A DNA stretch of 39,969 nt from Promethearchaeota archaeon (GTDB lineage: Archaea > Asgardarchaeota > Lokiarchaeia > Sigyniarchaeales > SOKP01): the NCBI GenBank assembly GCA_011364975.1, contig RDOE01000025.1:1-39969 (forward strand). Reading direction: 5' to 3'. A program made the position numbers and the translations under genes. Shown here piece after piece: positions 2,094-39,428 of the stretch (positions are counted from its first letter, which is position 1; every line of letters begins with the position of its first letter). Below the pieces are notes generated by a model. That model made no database searches. It was not told where the DNA came from and saw only the letters and a list, made by a program, of their open reading frames with translations.

Positions 2094-2230
2094 AGTTTAC
2101 TAAATATATTTAATCTGAAAGTTATTAAAAATTAATGAATATGGAAGATTTTAAATGAGGTCTTTAAACTCATTTTTTAGCATATAGGAGAATTCTCCAT
2201 AGTTTAGATCGTAAATTAGATGAGTTAAAT

Positions 2231-2977
2231 TTATCTGTAAATGACAGAAGGAACCTCAATTTCAATAACTGTATAGTTTTCACTGCTCCATGATTCAATT
2301 ATTCCAGCCCAAACGGGACAGCTTTGGCTCCGAGGTCTTATATACACTTGAACCCAATCATGTGGGGCAATCATAACATGCCGTGATAATTCCATTTCCC
2401 AGAATTCTGATCGAAAAAGATAATGTTCTACGACCAAAATCTGAGGGGCATTATCAAAACTATCCCATATAATACTTTCGTTGATTCCGAATGATGGTTT
2501 ATTAATAGATAGATACGAAATGAATTCATCTCTCATACCAACAACTTCAGAAATATTTTTTGCGAACCAATCTATCACTTCTACAATCGCAGAACCTTTT
2601 ATCATCGCATTAGCATTACTAACTATAGCTTCAACTTCAATTATATTATTCAAGTGGGTTGAATTGGGATTAATGAACACTTCCAGAATTTTTTTATTTG
2701 GGTCATTATTCCATACTTTATATTCCAAATCAATTGTTTCATTTGTTTGCACTGTAATTGAAAGATTCTCTAATAGTCTAGAATTATAAATATTTATCTC
2801 TGCTAATAACCAAGCAGTGTGGTTTGGAAATGATTTAACGTAATTCGGGATGAAAGTGATGTTGGATTTATCCTTATTAACCGAAAGGAAGATAAATATT
2901 AAAGGAGCTAAAATTGAAGCTAACACAAATACAACTATGAAAAAAATGATGAAAAATTTCTTAGTTTGGAGTTTCAT
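2231..2977 (-). CDS. hypothetical membrane-anchored/secreted protein
   Basis: 248 aa ORF with a basic N-terminus, a long hydrophobic helix, then a soluble domain with several N-x-S/T sequons. Confidence 0.7.
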   Translation of the reverse strand: MKLQTKKFFIIFFIVVFVLASILAPLIFIFLSVNKDKSNITFIPNYVKSFPNHTAWLLAEINIYNSRLLENLSITVQTNETIDLEYKVWNNDPNKKILEVFINPNSTHLNNIIEVEAIVSNANAMIKGSAIVEVIDWFAKNISEVVGMRDEFISYLSINKPSFGINESIIWDSFDNAPQILVVEHYLFRSEFWEMELSRHVMIAPHDWVQVYIRPRSQSCPVWAGIIESWSSENYTVIEIEVPSVIYR

Positions 2978-3042
2978 TGGTTAAAAATTTCCTCGTTTTG
3001 TACAAATAAACCAGAATCTCAAAATATAAAGTTTGTTGTTAT

Positions 3043-5442
3043 TTAGAAATTATGCTCTAATCTATCGATAATATCATTTTGAATGGGGGTTCCAAGATCA
3101 ACGAAGGTTGCATTATATCCCCCTACTTTAACTATCAAATCAGAATAGTTTTCAGGATGCAGCTGAGCATCCTTTAAAGTTTCTGTAGATACTACGTTAG
3201 GTTGTATTTGCATACCTCCTTTTTCAAAATAGCCTTTAAGAAGGAAAAATAATTTTTCGATTCCTTCTTCGGTATCAAGATTTTGAGGATGAATTCTTAC
3301 ATTTACCGCAACGCCATTGGTTGCATAATCATAATTCAATTTCGCTACAGAATTTAATATAGAAGTCAAACCATTTTTTTCCACTTTATTTACAGGGGAT
3401 AAACTATTTGAAATAGGTTCCATTGCTTTTCTACCATCAGCACTCGCTCTTGTAAAGAACCCTTCCATTACGTGGATTCCCATCGAATATGCTCCAGCAC
3501 TATATCTCCCTCCTCTTAAAGGTTTATATTTAGCTACTTCTTGAGTAAATAGATTCCATAACTCTACTGCAAATTTGTCTATTTCCTCCTTATCATTTCC
3601 CCATTTATCGTATTTATTCATTAATTTTTGTCTTAACTGATCATTACTTTCAAAATTTGAATTTAGAATCCCAATAAATTCACTAAGACTCATTTGCTTT
3701 TTTTCGAAGATTACCTTTTTAAGAATAAATAAAGAATCGACTAATGTCGCAAAACCATAACCAGTAATTGAAGAAAAGTTATATTTTGCTCCCCCACATA
3801 CATAATCTCTTCCGTTCTCTAGACATTTTTCTATGAACGCTGAGGTGAATGGGTGCTGAAAGAACTTCATTGCCTCCTGGTCCCCTATTTCTGCCAGTTT
3901 TACACATAGTTGAATATTATAGCTTAATTGCTCCTTAAAAGCATCAAAGAACTCATTAAATGTTCTGAACGAATTTGGTTCTCCTGTTTTTAATCCATCA
4001 AATCCTTTTGTTAAGTTACTGTATCCATTATTTAAGGTTAATTCTAAAACACCCGGTAAATTCATGAACATTCTACCAGTAGCAGAGAATGCATTCCCCT
4101 GTCCTGTAGGCTCAACGCATCCTATTATTACATAATCTCGAGCATCTTCTAATAAATATCCTGATTTGATTAATGCAGGTATTATAACATCATCATTATA
4201 AAAAGCAATTCCAGATGTTTGTCTAAAAACCCGTAATGCTTCCGTGAAGAACTCTTTTGGTGTATTTTTGTTAATCCTGACTGATAAATCTGTGGTAAAA
4301 ACTTTCAAATTTTTATACGCTTCTAAAAAGAGGTATGATAATTCATTAGTAATATCCTTTCCTTCTTTATTCACTCCCGATATGGTGATAGTTTGCGTAT
4401 TTTGCCCAAAAGCGTTAGCAACCATGGTAAAATCTGTAGGTAGAAGGGTCACATTCCAAGTTAATTTCAAATTTAACTCTTCTATGAGTTCTAAAGCAAA
4501 TTTTCGAGTTAGTCTTCCCCTTTTCAAATCATTTTGGTAATAGGGCCATAAAATCTGATCTAATCGTCCTAAAGCTAATACACTTCTTTGATAGATGATA
4601 TTTGCGATGTTTTGAGTGAACCAAATATATTGTATCGCTTCATAAAATGATTCGGGACATTCAAAACAAAATTTTTTCATCATCTCTCCAATAATTCTTA
4701 ATTCTTCTTTTCTGCTCGGATTTTGTTCCACGACTGCCATTTCAAAGGCAAGTTTCGAAAATCTATTAGCAAAATCAATAGCCCCTTGATAATATATTTT
4801 AACCGCTTCATAAAAATTAAATTTTTCGAGATAATCTGGATCTTCTTTATTAATTTTTAATTGAAGGATATTTGCTTTATCTATTATTCCCTTATATCCT
4901 AATTTCAAAAGCTTTTCATAACCAGCACTTAAATGACCTTCTGTAGTTCCAATATGGACAGCAATATTTGGTGCTAACGCTTCTAATTTGTTTGTTCCCT
5001 TTATTAGTTTTTTTTGCAATAATTTTTCTGTAATAATATCTCCGTCTAAGGATCTTCCTTTCCAAAATGAAATCATATCTAATATTTCATCTATTTCCTC
5101 GTCATTCACATAAAAGGGTTGTATCGCTCGCTTTGCTAATTTCTTATAGGTTATTTTTTTATCAAAACTATTATCATAACGTTGCAAATCAAGATTTATT
5201 TTTTCCCCTAGATTTTTGCTAGTTTCATTTCCTACTAGAAGTTCATGCTCTCTAATGAAAATGGTCATGTTTTTCAAAGTATGGGAAACAGCTTTGGCTC
5301 TCTTAATAATTTCAGGGTCATTAGGATACTTTTTATAAATTTCTGTAAAATATTTCATACGTTCTACACAGAGTTCATACTTACTTGATAAAAGATTCTG
5401 TTTTAGTTTTGTAGTTCTAGTTATTTCATTTTCACACATCAA
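3043..5442 (-). CDS. glycyl radical enzyme (PFL2/glycerol dehydratase/CutC-like family)
   Basis: ~800 aa with ELLVG, GRLDQILWPYY, Cys loop IIGCVEP, SADGR and C-terminal Gly loop HPENYSDLIVKVGGY. Confidence 0.92.
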   Translation of the reverse strand: MMCENEITRTTKLKQNLLSSKYELCVERMKYFTEIYKKYPNDPEIIKRAKAVSHTLKNMTIFIREHELLVGNETSKNLGEKINLDLQRYDNSFDKKITYKKLAKRAIQPFYVNDEEIDEILDMISFWKGRSLDGDIITEKLLQKKLIKGTNKLEALAPNIAVHIGTTEGHLSAGYEKLLKLGYKGIIDKANILQLKINKEDPDYLEKFNFYEAVKIYYQGAIDFANRFSKLAFEMAVVEQNPSRKEELRIIGEMMKKFCFECPESFYEAIQYIWFTQNIANIIYQRSVLALGRLDQILWPYYQNDLKRGRLTRKFALELIEELNLKLTWNVTLLPTDFTMVANAFGQNTQTITISGVNKEGKDITNELSYLFLEAYKNLKVFTTDLSVRINKNTPKEFFTEALRVFRQTSGIAFYNDDVIIPALIKSGYLLEDARDYVIIGCVEPTGQGNAFSATGRMFMNLPGVLELTLNNGYSNLTKGFDGLKTGEPNSFRTFNEFFDAFKEQLSYNIQLCVKLAEIGDQEAMKFFQHPFTSAFIEKCLENGRDYVCGGAKYNFSSITGYGFATLVDSLFILKKVIFEKKQMSLSEFIGILNSNFESNDQLRQKLMNKYDKWGNDKEEIDKFAVELWNLFTQEVAKYKPLRGGRYSAGAYSMGIHVMEGFFTRASADGRKAMEPISNSLSPVNKVEKNGLTSILNSVAKLNYDYATNGVAVNVRIHPQNLDTEEGIEKLFFLLKGYFEKGGMQIQPNVVSTETLKDAQLHPENYSDLIVKVGGYNATFVDLGTPIQNDIIDRLEHNF

Positions 5443-27985: not shown

Positions 27986-28339
27986 ATGGCGGATAAAAAA
28001 GTTCTTGAACAGAAAATGGCGGAATTAATGGATATTGTGCCTGAATGTGAAGGATTAATCGCAGCAGATATGGATGGTAAAGTACTTGTTGGACAGACAC
28101 TGTTAGAAATGGATCATGGCACAATTGCGAAATTTTGCGCAGGAATACTTAAAGAAACAAATAATTTTGGTAAAGGTGTAGGCAAGGGATCATTAAAAGC
28201 GACAACTATCGAATTAGAGAAAGGATATGCTATTTTGGTTGGTTCTGATACAATAATATTAATAGCCTTAGCGGGATTAGATGGGAAATCCTCCTTAAGT
28301 TTATTAAAGAGACATCTCATATCAATATCTAAAACATAA
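27986..28339 (+). CDS. Roadblock/LAMTOR2 (MglB-like) domain protein
   Basis: PECEGLIAADMDGKVL...GKGSLKATTIELEKGYAILVG. GGAG RBS-like tract upstream. Confidence 0.78.
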   Translation: MADKKVLEQKMAELMDIVPECEGLIAADMDGKVLVGQTLLEMDHGTIAKFCAGILKETNNFGKGVGKGSLKATTIELEKGYAILVGSDTIILIALAGLDGKSSLSLLKRHLISISKT

Positions 28340-28388: not shown

Positions 28389-31300
28389 TTATAAGCCTTC
28401 TTCTTCTAATAAGGAGTCTAAATCCGTTTTTTGTTCTTCCTCAGATTCTTCTTCCTCTTTTTGTTCTAGTTCCTCCTTTGGAGGACCTTTTTTGGGTAAT
28501 TCACTAACAGAAACATATTTCCCCCTTCTTGGTCTACGTTTTAACGGTATTTCAATAGGTGTTTCAATTTTCCTGATAATTCTTTTCCTATAGATCAGCA
28601 TTATTGCCCATGCGAGTAAAAAGATGCCTACCATAATCAAGATGAAAAATTGTAAAAGATATGTCTCTAAAGGTAAATCATATACTTCAAAGGTTGCAGA
28701 TTGTTCAAAAATATTAATTTCATTAGTTATCGGGTTTAATGATTCTATTGAAATGGTAAGTGTTATTTGTTCTATAGCTGGAACATCAATTTCTATTACT
28801 AACTCAGTAATATCTTCGGGAGCGAAGCGTTGTAGATCTAAATAATTTATTTCTGCGATAATGTATTCCGAATTTGGATTTGTTAAAACAGATATGTTAT
28901 TTACAATTAATTCAGAATCCCCTGAGTTAATTAAAATAACTTTTATTGGAGATTTTTTAACTTTGAAAATTTGTTCTACGTTAGATTGGATAGAAATTGT
29001 TATCTCATTTAATGCTTTAAATTGAGTTACAGTAATATTTTGAGCTTTTGAATTAATAAATTCATTTCCATTCCATATTAATCTGAATAGATATTCATCT
29101 TCGCTAAGAAGAGATAACGTATCTATCTCAAAATTAATAGTTCCATTTTCATTTGATATTTGATTTGATATATTATTCCATTTATTCTCATTATAGAGTT
29201 GAAGGGTAACATTCTCACTCGGTATTGAAATTCCGAATTCTGTTGTTAAATCTGAGCTCAGATTAAAAGATTGACCATATATCGGAGTTGTTGGGGAAGA
29301 TATGATGTTTGAGAAATTACTATTAAGTTTTAGTGAAAAACTACTGATAAATTCACCATAACTGCTTATATAATTCTTATCATAGATGTTTACAACAAAA
29401 GTAGTTTGTTCCGGTAAATATTGGCATTCATTTCTACTAAATGGTTTCAATAAAGAGGCTCCTGTTATCGTCGTATCATATTTAAGTGCTAAAATATACC
29501 CATCAAAATCATTTTGAGAACTATTAACTAAGAGGGAATAACCATCATTAACAAATGTTCCTACCTCAAAACTTTGTCCGCTATGTTCAAAATATATGAT
29601 TGCTCGGGTTTTTACTCCTCCTTTTCTTACTGGTGCATTCAATCCTTTCCATATACCGTCAGACTGAAGGGTAGGAATCTGTAATATTGTTGAGAACTCT
29701 TGAATGTGATTTCCATTAGGATCTACACTAGGTTTAATAACCTTAAGATCAGAAGTTTGTTCATCAATTATCCATTGATCATTTAGGAGTGACACTAGTT
29801 GTACTTTTACTTTCACATTAATATCTACAAAAGGATGAAGATTTTGAATTTCAAGGTTTATTTTGACATCCTCATCTGGATTGAGAACTGTTTCATTTTG
29901 TAGGAATGAATTTATTTGAATAGGAATTTTCTCCCCATTGATTTCATATATATATTCTTGATTAATTCCTGAATTATTAACCGCATAAAAGTCAGGATCA
30001 TACGCTCCACTGGTGACATTCACAGTGCCAATGAGAATGGAATAATTATTATATACTTTATCTACTATACCATCAAGCACATTTTTATCCAATAATGGTT
30101 CATAAAAACAACTGTTTAATTTGACATCATAATCATCAATATAGAGTTTTAATTTTTTACATCCAACTGCTGAACCATTTTCCCAGAAAAACGCAAGATA
30201 GTAATTTCCTAATAATTCCACATCTTCAGTTACATCTAATATAGATTGATTATTAAATTCAAAAACCAATGATGATTCCTTTATTTCGCTCAAACTAGTA
30301 CTTAATTCAGCTCCTGGATACTTTGTTTCATTATTGGGATAAAATAATACTACATTGGCATTTCCACCAATAGCAGGATCGCCATTAGGATTCTGAATAT
30401 CCACGCGTACGGAGATATTATCACCATACATAAAACCATTAGTTTCCCATAACTTATTATTATAATTAATGTAGCTATGCATTTGATGGATTAGATTGGT
30501 ACTCGTTAAACTTAAGGAATAAAATCCGCTAAGGCCATTTATTATCTCTTTAGATACATTAGTATATTCATAAACAGGGTTTCCAGGTAATTTATTTTCA
30601 CTTCCAGTCGCATTATAAACATAATCGTAAATATCTACATAATTAGGATTTGTAAGATTTGTTGCGGAATAATCATTTGGATATATTACCCATAATTCCT
30701 GAAATTCCCAATTATCTAAATTAGGATCGTTCAAATCGAGAGTAAAATTTAACTGCCATCTTGGAGTGTTATCGTATGAGACATTATAATAACTATTAGC
30801 ATTTTCAATCCAATATGCTTTTGCGATATAAGATATATTAAAATAAAATCCTTTAATATATGTATTATTCCAGTTAAGGGCTATTTCGAAATTATTAGGA
30901 GGAATACTTGTAATTGGTGTTGTAAAATTATAAATCCATTGCCCTAAACCCCAAGTGAGGGAAGAACTCTGAGCATAAGGTGCTATACTAATAATGCGAT
31001 TTTTTATCGGTAGATTTTGAATTCTTAAAGTATCACTATTATTATAGGGATTTATAAAATCAGAAGGCATATAACCGCGAGTTACATTTAGTTTAAAAGA
31101 AGCAGCATCAAGTTGACCGGAAGTATAGGCTCCAGTAACTGTTTTCCTAGCGACATTCCAAGAAGTTCCATTATTTAGAGTAGTTCTTAATTGATGATCA
31201 ATTCGAATGTCAGGATCTCCATAAGATGCTCGAGGAATTGATACCAAACTATGATAACTTTTAGATTGATTTGAATTAATCACAATAAAATAATTATAAA

Positions 31301-32528
31301 GTGGTGACTTTTGAGTATTTGATATGTTAAATGAGAAGTAAGTTAAAGAATCATTATGATAATCATTATATTTTATTATAAAGGAATCAATCTTTTTTGA
31401 AATATCTGGTCGTAGGTTAACTAACGCTAAATTAGTTTCGGTTCTTTGAATTGTAGAGTTTGCTTGGTAAAGAGTCACATATAATTCAGTATTTTGAGCT
31501 CCGGTCAAATTTAGGGTTCTAATCCAAGCATAAAAACCATTGATGGTTGAGCTTTCTCCTTTAAGATCAAACTCTAACGCAACATAGCTAGTATTTGTAA
31601 TTGGTAGGTCAAAAGCATAAGTAGCGGTTAAATGATATTCCCTTAATGTCAAAGTGAACTGCGAACTCTGAAGCCCAGTAAAGAAAAATTGAATATTGCA
31701 TATATTTGATGAATTTATATATTTCAAATTTTGATTAATTAATTTTTTCTCAAGGTTGTGAGTGCTTATAGAACTATTGAAAAACATTGGATTAGTAATA
31801 TTTATCCAAGCGGAATTAGAACTATCAAAAACACGAAGAGTAAGATAAGCACTTTTAGTAATGCTAAATTGATATGTTGAGATTAGTCCTAAAATAAAGT
31901 TTCTGTTGAAATTGAGACTTAGCGGTGAAAAGGATGTACTGGCAAAGCTAGATGAAATATTGAAGCTCAGGAGCCCATTTATATTCGAAAGAAACCGAAT
32001 ATATGTAGCAGGATTATTATCTACTAATTTAGATAAGTCTGGTGGAGGTGGAGTGTCTAAAATAGTTCCAATCTTAGCATTTATTGTTGAGGCGCCAGTG
32101 TTATAGTTGAATTTTATAAAATCACTTGTATCTAAAGCATTTGTATTCTCTATTATGTAATCTGTGGTATAATTATTTTGAAAAGTGAAATTAAAATTAC
32201 CATATGAGAGATAACTTGTATCTGCAGCTGACATGGAAGGAATTTCGAAACTTCCCTGATTATTCAAGGAGGATGAAGTATTTTCCCCATAAATTCTTAC
32301 ATCTTGCTGGTTACCTGATCCAGTAATATAATAATCTGATAAATAAGAATCAGAACTTAATGGTGTTTTATTATCAGATAGTAAATTAGTTTGAAAATTA
32401 TTTGAACCACTATAATTAAAAACTTCAAAAATTAGACTATTTGCTAAAAGAATAGAAATTAGAAAAATACTTGTCAATAAAATTCTTTTAACATTCCTTT
32501 CTCCTCGAATCAAATAAAACAACCGCAA
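28389..32528 (-). CDS. very large type-I membrane surface glycoprotein (1379 aa)
   Basis: N-terminal hydrophobic signal segment, Asn/Ser/Thr-rich beta-type ectodomain with many N-x-S/T sequons, one C-terminal TM helix, then a basic and acidic tail. Confidence 0.8.
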   Translation of the reverse strand: MRLFYLIRGERNVKRILLTSIFLISILLANSLIFEVFNYSGSNNFQTNLLSDNKTPLSSDSYLSDYYITGSGNQQDVRIYGENTSSSLNNQGSFEIPSMSAADTSYLSYGNFNFTFQNNYTTDYIIENTNALDTSDFIKFNYNTGASTINAKIGTILDTPPPPDLSKLVDNNPATYIRFLSNINGLLSFNISSSFASTSFSPLSLNFNRNFILGLISTYQFSITKSAYLTLRVFDSSNSAWINITNPMFFNSSISTHNLEKKLINQNLKYINSSNICNIQFFFTGLQSSQFTLTLREYHLTATYAFDLPITNTSYVALEFDLKGESSTINGFYAWIRTLNLTGAQNTELYVTLYQANSTIQRTETNLALVNLRPDISKKIDSFIIKYNDYHNDSLTYFSFNISNTQKSPLYNYFIVINSNQSKSYHSLVSIPRASYGDPDIRIDHQLRTTLNNGTSWNVARKTVTGAYTSGQLDAASFKLNVTRGYMPSDFINPYNNSDTLRIQNLPIKNRIISIAPYAQSSSLTWGLGQWIYNFTTPITSIPPNNFEIALNWNNTYIKGFYFNISYIAKAYWIENANSYYNVSYDNTPRWQLNFTLDLNDPNLDNWEFQELWVIYPNDYSATNLTNPNYVDIYDYVYNATGSENKLPGNPVYEYTNVSKEIINGLSGFYSLSLTSTNLIHQMHSYINYNNKLWETNGFMYGDNISVRVDIQNPNGDPAIGGNANVVLFYPNNETKYPGAELSTSLSEIKESSLVFEFNNQSILDVTEDVELLGNYYLAFFWENGSAVGCKKLKLYIDDYDVKLNSCFYEPLLDKNVLDGIVDKVYNNYSILIGTVNVTSGAYDPDFYAVNNSGINQEYIYEINGEKIPIQINSFLQNETVLNPDEDVKINLEIQNLHPFVDINVKVKVQLVSLLNDQWIIDEQTSDLKVIKPSVDPNGNHIQEFSTILQIPTLQSDGIWKGLNAPVRKGGVKTRAIIYFEHSGQSFEVGTFVNDGYSLLVNSSQNDFDGYILALKYDTTITGASLLKPFSRNECQYLPEQTTFVVNIYDKNYISSYGEFISSFSLKLNSNFSNIISSPTTPIYGQSFNLSSDLTTEFGISIPSENVTLQLYNENKWNNISNQISNENGTINFEIDTLSLLSEDEYLFRLIWNGNEFINSKAQNITVTQFKALNEITISIQSNVEQIFKVKKSPIKVILINSGDSELIVNNISVLTNPNSEYIIAEINYLDLQRFAPEDITELVIEIDVPAIEQITLTISIESLNPITNEINIFEQSATFEVYDLPLETYLLQFFILIMVGIFLLAWAIMLIYRKRIIRKIETPIEIPLKRRPRRGKYVSVSELPKKGPPKEELEQKEEEESEEEQKTDLDSLLEEEGL

Positions 32529-34136: not shown

Positions 34137-35315
34137 GTGCCCGATACCAAAACCGAAGATACCGTTATTTTAATTGATAGCTCCCGATCAATGTTAAGGA
34201 AAGATTTTAAGCCCAATCGATTATACACTGCACTTCAACTTATAAAAAGTTTTATTCATGAAAAATTTATTATAGATCCAACAGATCGCATCTCATTAGT
34301 TTCATTTGGAGATAATGCGAACAAGCTGATGAACTTTTCATATGAAGTAGAGAAACTTATTAATTCTCTTGAAAAAATCCAAATTTCTGGAAGAGGCAAT
34401 ATCCATGATGGAATTGCCTTTTCTCTTCAAATATTAGTTGAGGAGATGAGAAAACTTGGTGGAAAAGTTCATCGAATATTTATTATTTCAGATAATAAAA
34501 TTTTGAAAGATCCTAGGATTGAGAAATTAATCAATATATCAAAAGGTTTAGGAATTTATGTCGATGTATGTCAATTAGGCACAGAAGGAAATTATTCAAC
34601 TCCTTCACTAAAATTGATTGCAACATCTACCAAAGGACAATTTGAGTATCTCAATAATTCTAAAGATTCATCAAATATAGGAAAATGGTTTGCTTCGAAG
34701 AAGGAATTTAAAGATTCTATTGATTACTTTTCATCTAAAAAAACAAATGATATTGCTCCATTAATAAGTGAAATTGCTTTACCCTTAAGAAGACCTAGTG
34801 TATTAGATATTAGATTAATGATGAGTAGACAAGAAAAAGGTCAAGATAAATGCCAGATATGTCATTCAATTAAAGCTCCCTTGACCCAAAACGATTTTTA
34901 TTCTGAAGGACGTTATTGTCCTTCCTGTGATCGCCCTATGCATCTTTCTTGTGCATCAATGTGGGCGAAAAAGTCAGAATATAGGGAAAATATATTCCGA
35001 TGCCCATTTTGTTATTTTTTACTGGAGCTACCCCAATCTGCTGGAATGCTACTAGATGAAAAAACGGAATCTGAACCAAAAGTACGAATTATTGGAGAGG
35101 GGAATAATAATATAACACGAATGCTCTTGGTTAAAAATGAAAAAGTTAAAGAAATTGACGCTTCTTGTACCTATTGCCACGGAATCTTTTTAGGAGATTA
35201 TAAGGTTTATCAATGTGAGAATTGTAAAGTCTTTTATCACGAACCATGTTTAAATAAAATGCATGATGAAATAAGAGCTTGCAGAAATTGTGGCGCAAAA
35301 CTAGTTTTTGAGTGA
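34137..35315 (+). CDS. vWA domain + two C4HC3 RING/PHD-type zinc fingers (Ssl1/TFIIH p44-like architecture)
   Basis: ILIDSSRSMLRKDFKPNRL (DxSxS MIDAS), IFIISD; CQIC..CPSC..HLSC..CPFC and CTYC..CENC..HEPC..CRNC. Confidence 0.8.
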   Translation: MPDTKTEDTVILIDSSRSMLRKDFKPNRLYTALQLIKSFIHEKFIIDPTDRISLVSFGDNANKLMNFSYEVEKLINSLEKIQISGRGNIHDGIAFSLQILVEEMRKLGGKVHRIFIISDNKILKDPRIEKLINISKGLGIYVDVCQLGTEGNYSTPSLKLIATSTKGQFEYLNNSKDSSNIGKWFASKKEFKDSIDYFSSKKTNDIAPLISEIALPLRRPSVLDIRLMMSRQEKGQDKCQICHSIKAPLTQNDFYSEGRYCPSCDRPMHLSCASMWAKKSEYRENIFRCPFCYFLLELPQSAGMLLDEKTESEPKVRIIGEGNNNITRMLLVKNEKVKEIDASCTYCHGIFLGDYKVYQCENCKVFYHEPCLNKMHDEIRACRNCGAKLVFE

Positions 35316-38186: not shown

Positions 38187-39428
38187 TTGGATTATTTTAT
38201 GTTACTTTATGAAAATAAAAGAATCAAATTACTAAACTTCCTCAAATTAGGCATTAATCCTTTTAGGAAGTTCGTAAGCACAGGGGAAATCAAAGAGGAA
38301 TTAGGTCTAGTAAAATCACGTGATGAATTATTTCAATCTATCAAGGAAAGGCTAGAAAAAGAAAATAACATCATTATTCCAATTATAGGTGATGTGGGTG
38401 TTGGTAAAACTCACTTATACTGGATGTTACGATATAATCTTTATTTTCATAATTCAATCTATTTATCCCTAGAATCTCTTAAAAATCGATTCTATTATAC
38501 AATCTATTCAGAGTTTATAGAAATTTTAGGAGTAGATTTATTGAGGTTCATTCTAAACCAATTGTGTACACAATGGGGTGCACTTGAAAGAAAATATGGT
38601 TTTTTTCATGTCGCAAATTTAGAAAGAGCAAAATCAAAGGCTTTGGAGCATTTTTTAAGTTTATATGATGAGAAAGATATTGATATCATAGAAGATATTA
38701 TCAATGGAATTATTATTCATCAATTTGATCCATATAACAAGATAGAAGCTGAGGAATGGTTATTAGGCAGACTCATGGATGCTAAAGAATTATCTAGGTT
38801 AAATATGAATAGTGATCTTAGAAAAAGCAAAAGCGCTTATATGATGTTAAGAATTTTAATTGAAAATTCTAAATTGAATACTGTTCTTTTTATTGATGAT
38901 TTTGAAAAAATTATAACCATTATGAAACCAAAAGATGAATCCACTGAAGAAGTATTTGATCCTAGCTGGCTTTATGGAAATGAAAAATCTCCTGATGATA
39001 TTAAATCCGAAAAAATTTTGAGTAGATTAACCAAATTAATTACTATTAACAAATTACGGATCATAATAACATTAAAATCTCTGGACTTGTTGAATGAAAT
39101 TAAACAGAAGTTTGAGGAATTTTACCCTGATTTCATTTTAAATATAGGGGAACCACTCTTTATTGAAAGTTTTAAAGAAAATGACATTTTTGAATTTTAC
39201 ACTCAAAATATAAATAGCTTTTATGAAGAAATGGATTTTAAGGAATTTATTGGAGCTTTTCAAAATGAATATTTCCCTCTAAATAAAAAAACCTTAAAAA
39301 AAATTTATAATCAAACCCAAGGTAATCCACGCGAAGTTATAAAGTCTCTTATAGAAATCTTTAATCAAATTATATACTCTGATGAAAGATTAGATGAAAT
39401 CCTTGAAAATTATGAAAAATCAAATTAG
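38187..39428 (+). CDS. P-loop AAA+-like ATPase (BrxD/DUF2791-like)
   Basis: Walker A IIGDVGVGKTHL, helical insert with EWLLG, Walker B VLFIDDFE, C-terminal GNPREVI. Confidence 0.75.
   Translation: MDYFMLLYENKRIKLLNFLKLGINPFRKFVSTGEIKEELGLVKSRDELFQSIKERLEKENNIIIPIIGDVGVGKTHLYWMLRYNLYFHNSIYLSLESLKNRFYYTIYSEFIEILGVDLLRFILNQLCTQWGALERKYGFFHVANLERAKSKALEHFLSLYDEKDIDIIEDIINGIIIHQFDPYNKIEAEEWLLGRLMDAKELSRLNMNSDLRKSKSAYMMLRILIENSKLNTVLFIDDFEKIITIMKPKDESTEEVFDPSWLYGNEKSPDDIKSEKILSRLTKLITINKLRIIITLKSLDLLNEIKQKFEEFYPDFILNIGEPLFIESFKENDIFEFYTQNINSFYEEMDFKEFIGAFQNEYFPLNKKTLKKIYNQTQGNPREVIKSLIEIFNQIIYSDERLDEILENYEKSN

Follow-up and report, generated by a model that had tools for sequence, protein, structure and literature searches.

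A two-finger von Willebrand factor A protein restricted to one order of Asgard archaea resembles TFIIH p44 in layout and may be a RING-type ligase or adaptor

The window analysed here is the whole of a 39,969-nucleotide stretch of DNA from a Promethearchaeota archaeon of the class Lokiarchaeia (GenBank assembly GCA_011364975.1, contig RDOE01000025.1, positions 1 to 39,969 of the forward strand). The gene of interest lies at 34137..35315 on the + strand, where the open reading frame (ORF) listing and its translation give a GTG start and a protein of 392 residues plus stop. An initial reading made without database searches (the sequence-only reading) had proposed a homologue of the TFIIH subunit p44/Ssl1, acting as a regulator of the helicase XPD or as an E3 ligase. 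ORF 34137–35315 is a genuine gene and no chance ORF, since, of 3139 candidate database proteins, 400 match it at E ≤ 0.001, and the 120 closest are of near-equal length (351–423 residues) and 59–98% identical. The named homologues are annotated as “VWA domain-containing protein” and come from metagenome-assembled genomes of Promethearchaeota, Lokiarchaeota, and Thor- or Hodarchaeota. In the alignment, the N-terminus of the ORF lines up with the methionine starts of its orthologues. Inspected by eye, the protein sequence shows neither a signal peptide nor a membrane segment, and a cytosolic gene product is the best explanation.

The protein begins with a von Willebrand factor type A (vWA) domain, delimited at approximately residues 6–190 (34152..34706, +) by Pfam matches, predicted fold and structural alignments. 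It matches the Pfam models VWA_2 (63.4 bits), Ssl1 (PF04056; 46.5 bits, cut-off 27) and VWA (41.7 bits); the Ssl1 match spans model positions 2–156 of 193 and reaches 48.4 bits in a six-frame search. The domain carries a DxSxS motif of the metal ion-dependent adhesion site (MIDAS) type (D14, S16, S18; 34176..34190, +) and, after the MIDAS loop, a D-F-K-P-N-R-L motif at residues 23–29 (34203..34223, +) that aligns to stretches of p44 and Rpn10. A conserved linker with a predicted short helix (residues 207–229; 34755..34823, +) separates the vWA domain from two C4HC3 zinc fingers, both spaced CxxC-(n)-CxxC-x4-HxxC-(n)-CxxC. Finger 1 is RING/PHD-like and occupies residues 239–292 (ligands C239, C242, C261, C264, H269, C272, C289, C292; 34851..35012, +). 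Finger 2 is RING/C1-like and occupies residues 344–385 (C344, C347, C360, C363, H368, C371, C382, C385; 35166..35291, +).

The columns of a 48-member alignment average 69% identity, with no variation at D14, S16, S18 or any of the 16 Cys/His ligands. The same holds for linker positions P208, L209, I213, A214, L215, L217, R219, P220 and L223, and for I241, W276, P290 and F291 of finger 1. The sequence-only reading had described both fingers as C4HC3 and the DxSxS motif as intact, which this alignment confirms, and the peptide strings that it quoted are present at residues 11–56 and 344–385. A second alignment of 50 finger sequences, including members only 25–44% identical to the finger module of the window protein, keeps 15 of the 16 ligands and W276 invariant, with C371 kept in at least 90%. 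The DxSxS motif is not kept in the divergent subfamilies P0134, P0136, P0141, P0146 and P0148. The fingers are therefore the most constrained part of the protein, because their ligands persist where the MIDAS motif is lost. The AlphaFold2 model of the whole protein has a predicted local distance difference test score (pLDDT) of 78 and a predicted template modelling score (pTM) of 0.79, with an alternating strand/helix vWA domain mostly at pLDDT 80–95. The finger module modelled separately has an overall pLDDT of 80.8, and 80–93 in the zinc-finger units.

An exhaustive profile search of 1.84 billion representative proteins returned 2220 proteins at E ≤ 1e-3, 173 at E ≤ 1e-10 and 61 at E ≤ 1e-30. 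The strong matches are mostly 388–418 residues long and of equal architecture, together with shorter fragments, and those that are named belong to Promethearchaeota or Lokiarchaeia. Distribution was assessed in a phylum sample of 201 genomes from 27 families, with presence of the vWA-two-finger family called at a profile E ≤ 1e-20. All 40 genomes of one family (f1) and all three genomes of a second family of the same order (f2) contain it, and none of the 157 genomes of the remaining 25 families does, so that its range is a single Asgard order (43 of 43 genomes sampled there, 0 of 157 elsewhere). For a comparison of loci, 80 were kept of 118 relatives from species-representative genomes; these are 55–65% identical, and 79 have Asgard-type or “uncultured archaeon” titles. 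The remaining locus (L006, DATKTW010000029.1), titled “Candidatus Nanopelagicaceae bacterium”, carries a 64% identical orthologue with the order M20 peptidase–vWA–methionyl-tRNA synthetase (MetRS) kept, and is probably a mis-binned Asgard contig. In one same-family genome the orthologue is in two pieces about 5.6 kb apart (G177:C1:171094–171810 and 177469–177771), which correspond to query residues 2–239 and 290–390 and each have an internal TGA; either an insertion or disruption of the gene could account for this. At about 60% identity between members throughout the order, compared with about 75% for the neighbouring MetRS, the protein is among the most conserved lineage-specific proteins of the order. 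No published description of the family was found in titles, the opening parts of abstracts, or the portions seen of PMC6222260 and PMC4802759; supplements of Asgard comparative-genomics studies may list it. The family is an uncharacterised, order-specific Asgard family that joins known kinds of domain in a p44-like layout.

A full-length paralogue of the same architecture (397 residues, 31% identical) is found in the same genome (G000, contig C192), and both paralogues are present in most f1 genomes. It is divergently oriented to a GTPase gene (L002 817–2010, −, and 2218–3426, +). The GTPase, of 402 residues (Gtr1/RagA 77 bits, Arf 73 bits), lies approximately 210 bp away, and the pairing is kept in all five paralogue loci from other genomes, with the GTPases 54–73% identical.

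Searches with the whole window protein lead to p44. Its best PDB sequence match is human p44 (E 1.7e-9), followed by Rpn10 (3e-7), yeast Ssl1 (6.5e-4) and BatB (0.02). HMMER aligns residues 10–155 to human p44 62–209 at 37.5 bits for that stretch, in agreement with the p44 strings from which the sequence-only reading had recognised a p44/Ssl1-like N-terminus. Foldseek places full-length p44/Ssl1 chains first (6.9e-17, approximately 400 aligned columns), at a root-mean-square deviation (rmsd) of about 23 Å that is high because the domains are differently arranged. Next come vWA-only chains of p44 (about 5e-13 to 2e-12), Rpn10 (3.5e-12) and BatB (1.2e-10), and the vWA domains of p44, Rpn10 and BatB superpose on the predicted one at rmsd 2.5–5.4 Å. 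In the ESM Atlas, eukaryotic p44 clusters (0.88–0.91) and Tfb4 (0.81) follow directly behind the family's own clusters, which the tool rates as a lead only. The Ssl1 cut-off is passed by only two of the 11 VWA_2-positive loci in the genome, namely the two paralogues. None of the 157 genomes of other Asgard families passes it, nor does any of 14 control genomes, among which E. coli gave a sub-cut-off match in one search and none in another.

These results, together with the single XPD gene of the genome and the nominal first rank of the p44 RING among structures matching finger 2 (below), argue for a true archaeal homologue of TFIIH p44/Ssl1 by descent, which would bind and regulate XPD. Such an identity is nevertheless very improbable. 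The family profile scores p44 at 43.4 bits and Rpn10 at 41.9 bits, which is a tie, and BatB at 18.9 bits; the relation of the vWA domain to Rpn10, also part of the sequence-only reading, thus stands level with that to p44. Even the weakest of the 150 best representatives in the profile search, at approximately 60 bits, outscores p44. These 150 include proteins without fingers, about 230 residues long, such as P0212 and P0213 (about 83 bits), which Pfam assigns to generic VWA with Ssl1 at no more than 26 bits, below the cut-off; the two that are named belong to Thermoplasmatota and Patescibacteria. Behind the MIDAS loop, 49 of the 150 carry the pattern D[FYLI]xPxR[LFIM], and 14 of these 49 are vWA proteins of 198–361 residues that have no fingers. 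Since generic vWA proteins without fingers carry it, the motif is not specific to p44 as had been suggested.

Other members of the family prefer other structures. PDB sequence matches of the paralogue are near equal (4rck 2.1e-5, Rpn10 4.7e-5, p44 7e-5, BatB 1.2e-4), member P0143 has BatB first (3.2e-6, against 1.2e-4 for p44), and member P0129 has Rpn10 first (3.1e-8) with p44 absent at E ≤ 0.01. As controls, the generic vWA protein P0213 favours PTMP1, 4rck and BatB, and P0212 favours Rpn10. Ssl1 itself is matched at E ≤ 0.01 by only 12 of 22 full-length divergent members. Judged by sequence, the preference for p44 holds for this orthologue group and not for the family as a whole, and the protein resembles p44 in its layout and, within this orthologue group, in its vWA sequence.

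The C-terminal part of p44 is represented in Pfam by C1_4 (PF07975, its TFIIH RING model). Among the Pfam models that the sequence-only reading had put forward, Ssl1 and VWA_2 match and C1_4 does not: it is absent from the 17 families matching the protein at E ≤ 1 and from the 25 families shown of 38 in a scan of 50 members. C1_4 also has no match in the genome at E ≤ 0.01, a result that is weak alone as the control matched nowhere either. Like p44/Ssl1, the Lokiarchaeal protein has the module order vWA, zinc finger, C-terminal RING-like finger, and is of nearly equal length. It differs in that both fingers are C4HC3 and binuclear and DxSxS is intact, whereas the ligand pattern of p44 is one C4 finger and a C4C4 RING, the RING part of which is also seen in the p44 alignment. 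Membership of the p44 family is not demonstrated, and both a C1_4 match and the p44 ligand pattern are lacking.

Distribution points the same way. XPD-type helicases are found in 181 of the 201 sampled genomes and 25 of the 27 families, compared with 44 of 201 genomes for the vWA-two-finger family. With XPD phylum-wide and the family confined to one order, XPD does not depend on the family, and the family does not follow XPD. The one XPD gene of this genome (L098 4568–6733; G000 contig C180) encodes 721 residues. It begins with a zinc-ribbon-like CxxC...CxxC N-terminal extension of approximately 70 residues, which accounts for its extra length; the absence of a C-terminal extension is a further point against a p44 partner, as is the synteny of the vWA gene with M20 peptidase and MetRS genes. 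No XPD or TFIIH gene was found near the vWA gene, either at its own locus or at the related loci. Among other TFIIH core subunits, nothing was detected beyond a borderline Tfb4/p34 signal (p52, p62 and p8 were not searched). This sole signal in the genome falls on the paralogue, at 27.4 bits against a cut-off of 27 in the six-frame search. The proposed p44 orthology and XPD regulation are not supported, given the Rpn10 tie, the missing C1_4 and the one-order distribution beside a phylum-wide XPD.

The vWA similarity to Rpn10 equals that to p44 at profile level, with an rmsd of about 2.5 Å over approximately 185 residues, but the C-terminal half of the Lokiarchaeal protein consists of two zinc fingers and it has no detected ubiquitin-interacting motif, a family absent from its Pfam hits at E ≤ 1. 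BatA/BatB-type and generic prokaryotic vWA proteins share DxSxS followed by D[FY]xPxR[LF], and the finger-less ones score 60–83 bits, but they have no zinc fingers and stay at or below 26 bits for Ssl1. A Sec23/24 reading (zf-Sec23_Sec24, E 0.5) and a Ku reading (Ku_N, E 0.013) were rejected, both matches being insignificant.

The structural neighbours of the fingers are mostly E3 ligases. A VIA structure search with the finger module gave 38 chains at Z ≥ 5, nearly all of them E3 RINGs. The closest structures to finger 1 are the RINGs of FANCL (Z 6.8, rmsd 1.8 Å, 62 aligned) and Listerin (Z 6.0), followed by Nse1 (Z 5.5) and Slx1 (Z 5.1). FANCL has a PHD-like RING and is a working E3. For finger 2, the exhaustive structural search nominally ranks the human p44 RING first (Z 7.8, rmsd 2.4 Å, 60 residues, 22% identity) and the Chaetomium p44 RING next (Z 7.6; 5nus_B, from the p34/p44 minimal complex), with ZNRF1 (6.9), RNF12 (6.6), HRD1 (6.6) and RNF165 within 1 Z of the p44 RING and thus tied with it by the tool's definition. 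Residues 343–388 align to p44 344–388 with one gap and at an insignificant 2.6 bits (i-Evalue 470). The parallel drawn by the sequence-only reading between the last finger and the p44 RING therefore holds for the ligand spacing, which is nearly equal, and for the nominal top structure, but not for the sequence.

Sequence comparisons lead to RING proteins mainly through other members. In the six-frame search the paralogue exceeds the Prok-RING_1 cut-off at 30.9 bits. Its finger 2, like that of P0129, matches the RINGs of Arkadia, RNF13 and RNF38 at E 1e-3 to 1e-2, and finger 1 of P0129 matches APC11. In a Pfam scan of 50 members at E ≤ 0.01, zf-RING_2 was matched by 37 and Prok-RING_1 by 35, with rarer matches to FANCL_C (four), zf-ANAPC11 (three) and SLX1_C (two). 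The Lokiarchaeal fingers share their cross-brace, eight-ligand build with the variant C4HC3 RINGs of FANCL, Listerin, Nse1 and Slx1 and with the RING-H2 fingers of RNF165/Arkadia, RNF38 and HRD1. The protein differs from known RING E3s in having two tandem fingers behind a vWA domain and no RING model above cut-off, and its ligase role is predicted. The plant RGLG and WAV3/SOR1 families combine vWA and RING in one E3 ligase and offer no more than an analogy; in these, the domain order or the type of vWA differs. An RBR-type E3 was rejected, as the protein has no more than two zinc modules and the Foldseek match to HOIL-1 is poor (E 0.085, probability 0.23).

The genome also encodes the other components of ubiquitin-like conjugation: UQ_con is matched at two loci and ThiF at six, and three of four ubiquitin-like matches are above cut-off. 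A canonical archaeal ubiquitin operon of the ubiquitin-like protein (Ubl)–E1–E2–JAB–RING type lies at L096 4079–10673 (G000 contig C128). It contains two Ubl genes, E1 (activating enzyme), E2 (conjugating enzyme) and a JAB peptidase, along with two membrane proteins, one multi-pass, of 398 residues, with a RING-like finger at its end, and the other of 273 residues, whose C-terminal domain is a Ubl. When the finger module was compared by BLASTP with the RING protein of this operon, only fragments aligned (E 0.016–0.031). Outside the operon, contig C132 carries a second E1 of 524 residues (L097 3582–5156, +) and a second E2 of 172 residues with an HPN motif and a catalytic Cys (L097 7449–7967, −). 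Matches to the second E1 at E ≤ 1e-100 occur in 38/40 genomes of f1, 3/3 of f2 and 0/157 others, and orthologues of the second E2 (70–94% identical) in 37/40 and 3/3, all other matches being at most 45% identical, which is the level of the operon-type E2. The second E1/E2 pair, both members of which are highly conserved, and the vWA-two-finger family thus have one order-restricted distribution in common. In all four sampled genomes of genus g3 (G019, G030, G117, G159), the second-E1 match has two in-frame stops and is otherwise 72–76% identical; the gene may be split or contain a small insertion.

With the anatomy, conservation, distribution and conjugation genes observed as above, we tentatively read the protein as a RING-type E3 ubiquitin (or ubiquitin-like) ligase or a ligase adaptor, at a probability of about 0.45, and infer E2 recruitment, catalysis and a target accordingly as parts of that reading. 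The vWA domain, of the broad BatA/Rpn10/p44 kind, would serve as a protein-binding module that picks the target or anchors the protein in a complex, and the two cross-brace fingers would act as RING-type modules. Finger 1 is the candidate recruiter of the charged E2 (E2~Ubl) because it has a hydrophobic residue in CxIC, a Trp four past ligand 6 and CPFC at ligands 7–8. I241, W276 (four after ligand 6) and P290–F291 (CPFC) occupy what we take to be the positions by which RING E3s canonically contact an E2. Finger 2 is without these features, having Tyr, Met and Arg where finger 1 has Ile (CxIC), Trp and Pro (CPFC), and its role would be accessory or the binding of a partner. The E3 ligase alternative of the sequence-only reading is in this way taken up as the best reading. 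A ubiquitin-ligase-type adaptor is a likelier identity for the protein than a true p44. A predicted complex of the second E2 with the two-finger module (residues 25–188 of the finger alignment) scored 0.02 and 0.19 against a mark of 0.32, which is no evidence either way.

Several observations weigh against a ligase or adaptor. The RING models remain below their Pfam cut-offs on the window protein (zf-RING_2 13 bits, Prok-RING_1 11–20 bits), and PHD is the sole finger model above its cut-off, matching finger 1 on the isolated module at 25.7 bits against 24. Both models of finger 2 are likewise below cut-off (C1_1 18.5–22.1 bits, Prok-RING_1 11–18 bits), and the CxxC-x4-HxxC spacing is PHD/C1-like and unlike a classical RING. 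All finger Z-scores are below 8, which, according to the tool, may reflect a mere common arrangement, and Foldseek gave no match for the finger module at E ≤ 1e-3, the best being RNF165 at 8.4e-3. At least four other RING-like candidates are present in the genome. In the loci examined, an E1, E2 or Ubl gene was never seen adjoining the vWA gene. The distribution shared with the second E1/E2 pair amounts to a single phylogenetic event and is hence weak evidence for a functional link. The RING-like fingers of p44 and of GATOR2-type proteins, finally, are non-catalytic interaction modules.

The PHD-like spacing and the PHD match would also suit fingers of the PHD/C1 reader type, which would make the protein a vWA-linked sensor or reader of peptide tails, lipids or nucleic acids. 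At E ≤ 0.01, C1_1 is matched by 40 of the 50 members, PHD by 37 and PHD_NSD by 26, and an atypical PHD (VIN3) and PHF7 are among the structural matches of the fingers. A reader is still improbable, given that the structural and sequence neighbours are mostly E3 RINGs, that the best match of finger 1, FANCL, is itself a PHD-like RING with E3 activity, and that no ligand can be inferred.

A non-catalytic scaffold is rather unlikely, though less so than a reader. The fingers and the vWA domain would here assemble a complex, possibly a p44/p34-like heterodimer of both paralogues, without ubiquitin transfer. Nearly all f1 genomes retain both paralogues, which share one architecture and are 31% identical, and the full-length pTM of 0.79 suggests a defined arrangement between domains. 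Finger 2, which does not have the Ile, Trp and Pro of finger 1, is nominally closest to the p44 RING of the p34/p44 minimal complex. The paralogue grazes the Tfb4/p34 cut-off and three of the 50 members match Tfb4 at E ≤ 0.01, but the signal is borderline, falling to 26.1 bits and below the cut-off with hmmscan. Finger 1, moreover, retains residues that we take to be typical of E2-binding RINGs, which speaks for the ligase or adaptor and against a scaffold.

The M20 peptidase gene is found upstream of the vWA gene in 79 of the 80 related loci and the MetRS gene downstream in 74; of the six loci where MetRS is missing, four stop just past the vWA gene. Genes farther off are also conserved, so that the M20–vWA–MetRS order looks like lineage-wide colinearity and not like a functional operon, and a function based on an operon was rejected for this reason. 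Elsewhere in the window, 27986–28339 (+) is a Roadblock/LC7-like ORF (22 bits, just below cut-off). At 28389–32528 (−), an Asn/Ser-rich protein of 1379 residues has a membrane anchor at its C-terminal end, matches nothing in Pfam and is conserved in 67 of the 80 related loci. A STAND/AAA-like NTPase of 413 residues at 38187–39428 (+) is conserved in 57.

We know of no established origin for the TFIIH core subunits other than XPB and XPD, and Asgard archaea are the place to look for TFIIH intermediates. The vWA-two-finger family is a natural candidate for such an intermediate because it is the only sampled prokaryotic group that passes Ssl1 and has a p44-like layout. The evidence says only that the protein resembles p44, without establishing a specific relationship. 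A more speculative idea, which we regard as a long shot, is that the family and its paralogue are the archaeal sister, still extant, of the p44 and p34 of eukaryotes. A vWA-RING E3-type protein would have originated in Asgard archaea, undergone duplication and been recruited into TFIIH later, on the way to eukaryotes. If this were true, the Lokiarchaeal proteins would show p44 as it was before TFIIH, and contact with XPD or a heterodimer of the p44/p34 kind might already exist in them. With its high conservation and the distribution that it shares with the second E1/E2 pair, the protein is a good entry point into archaeal ubiquitin-like conjugation.

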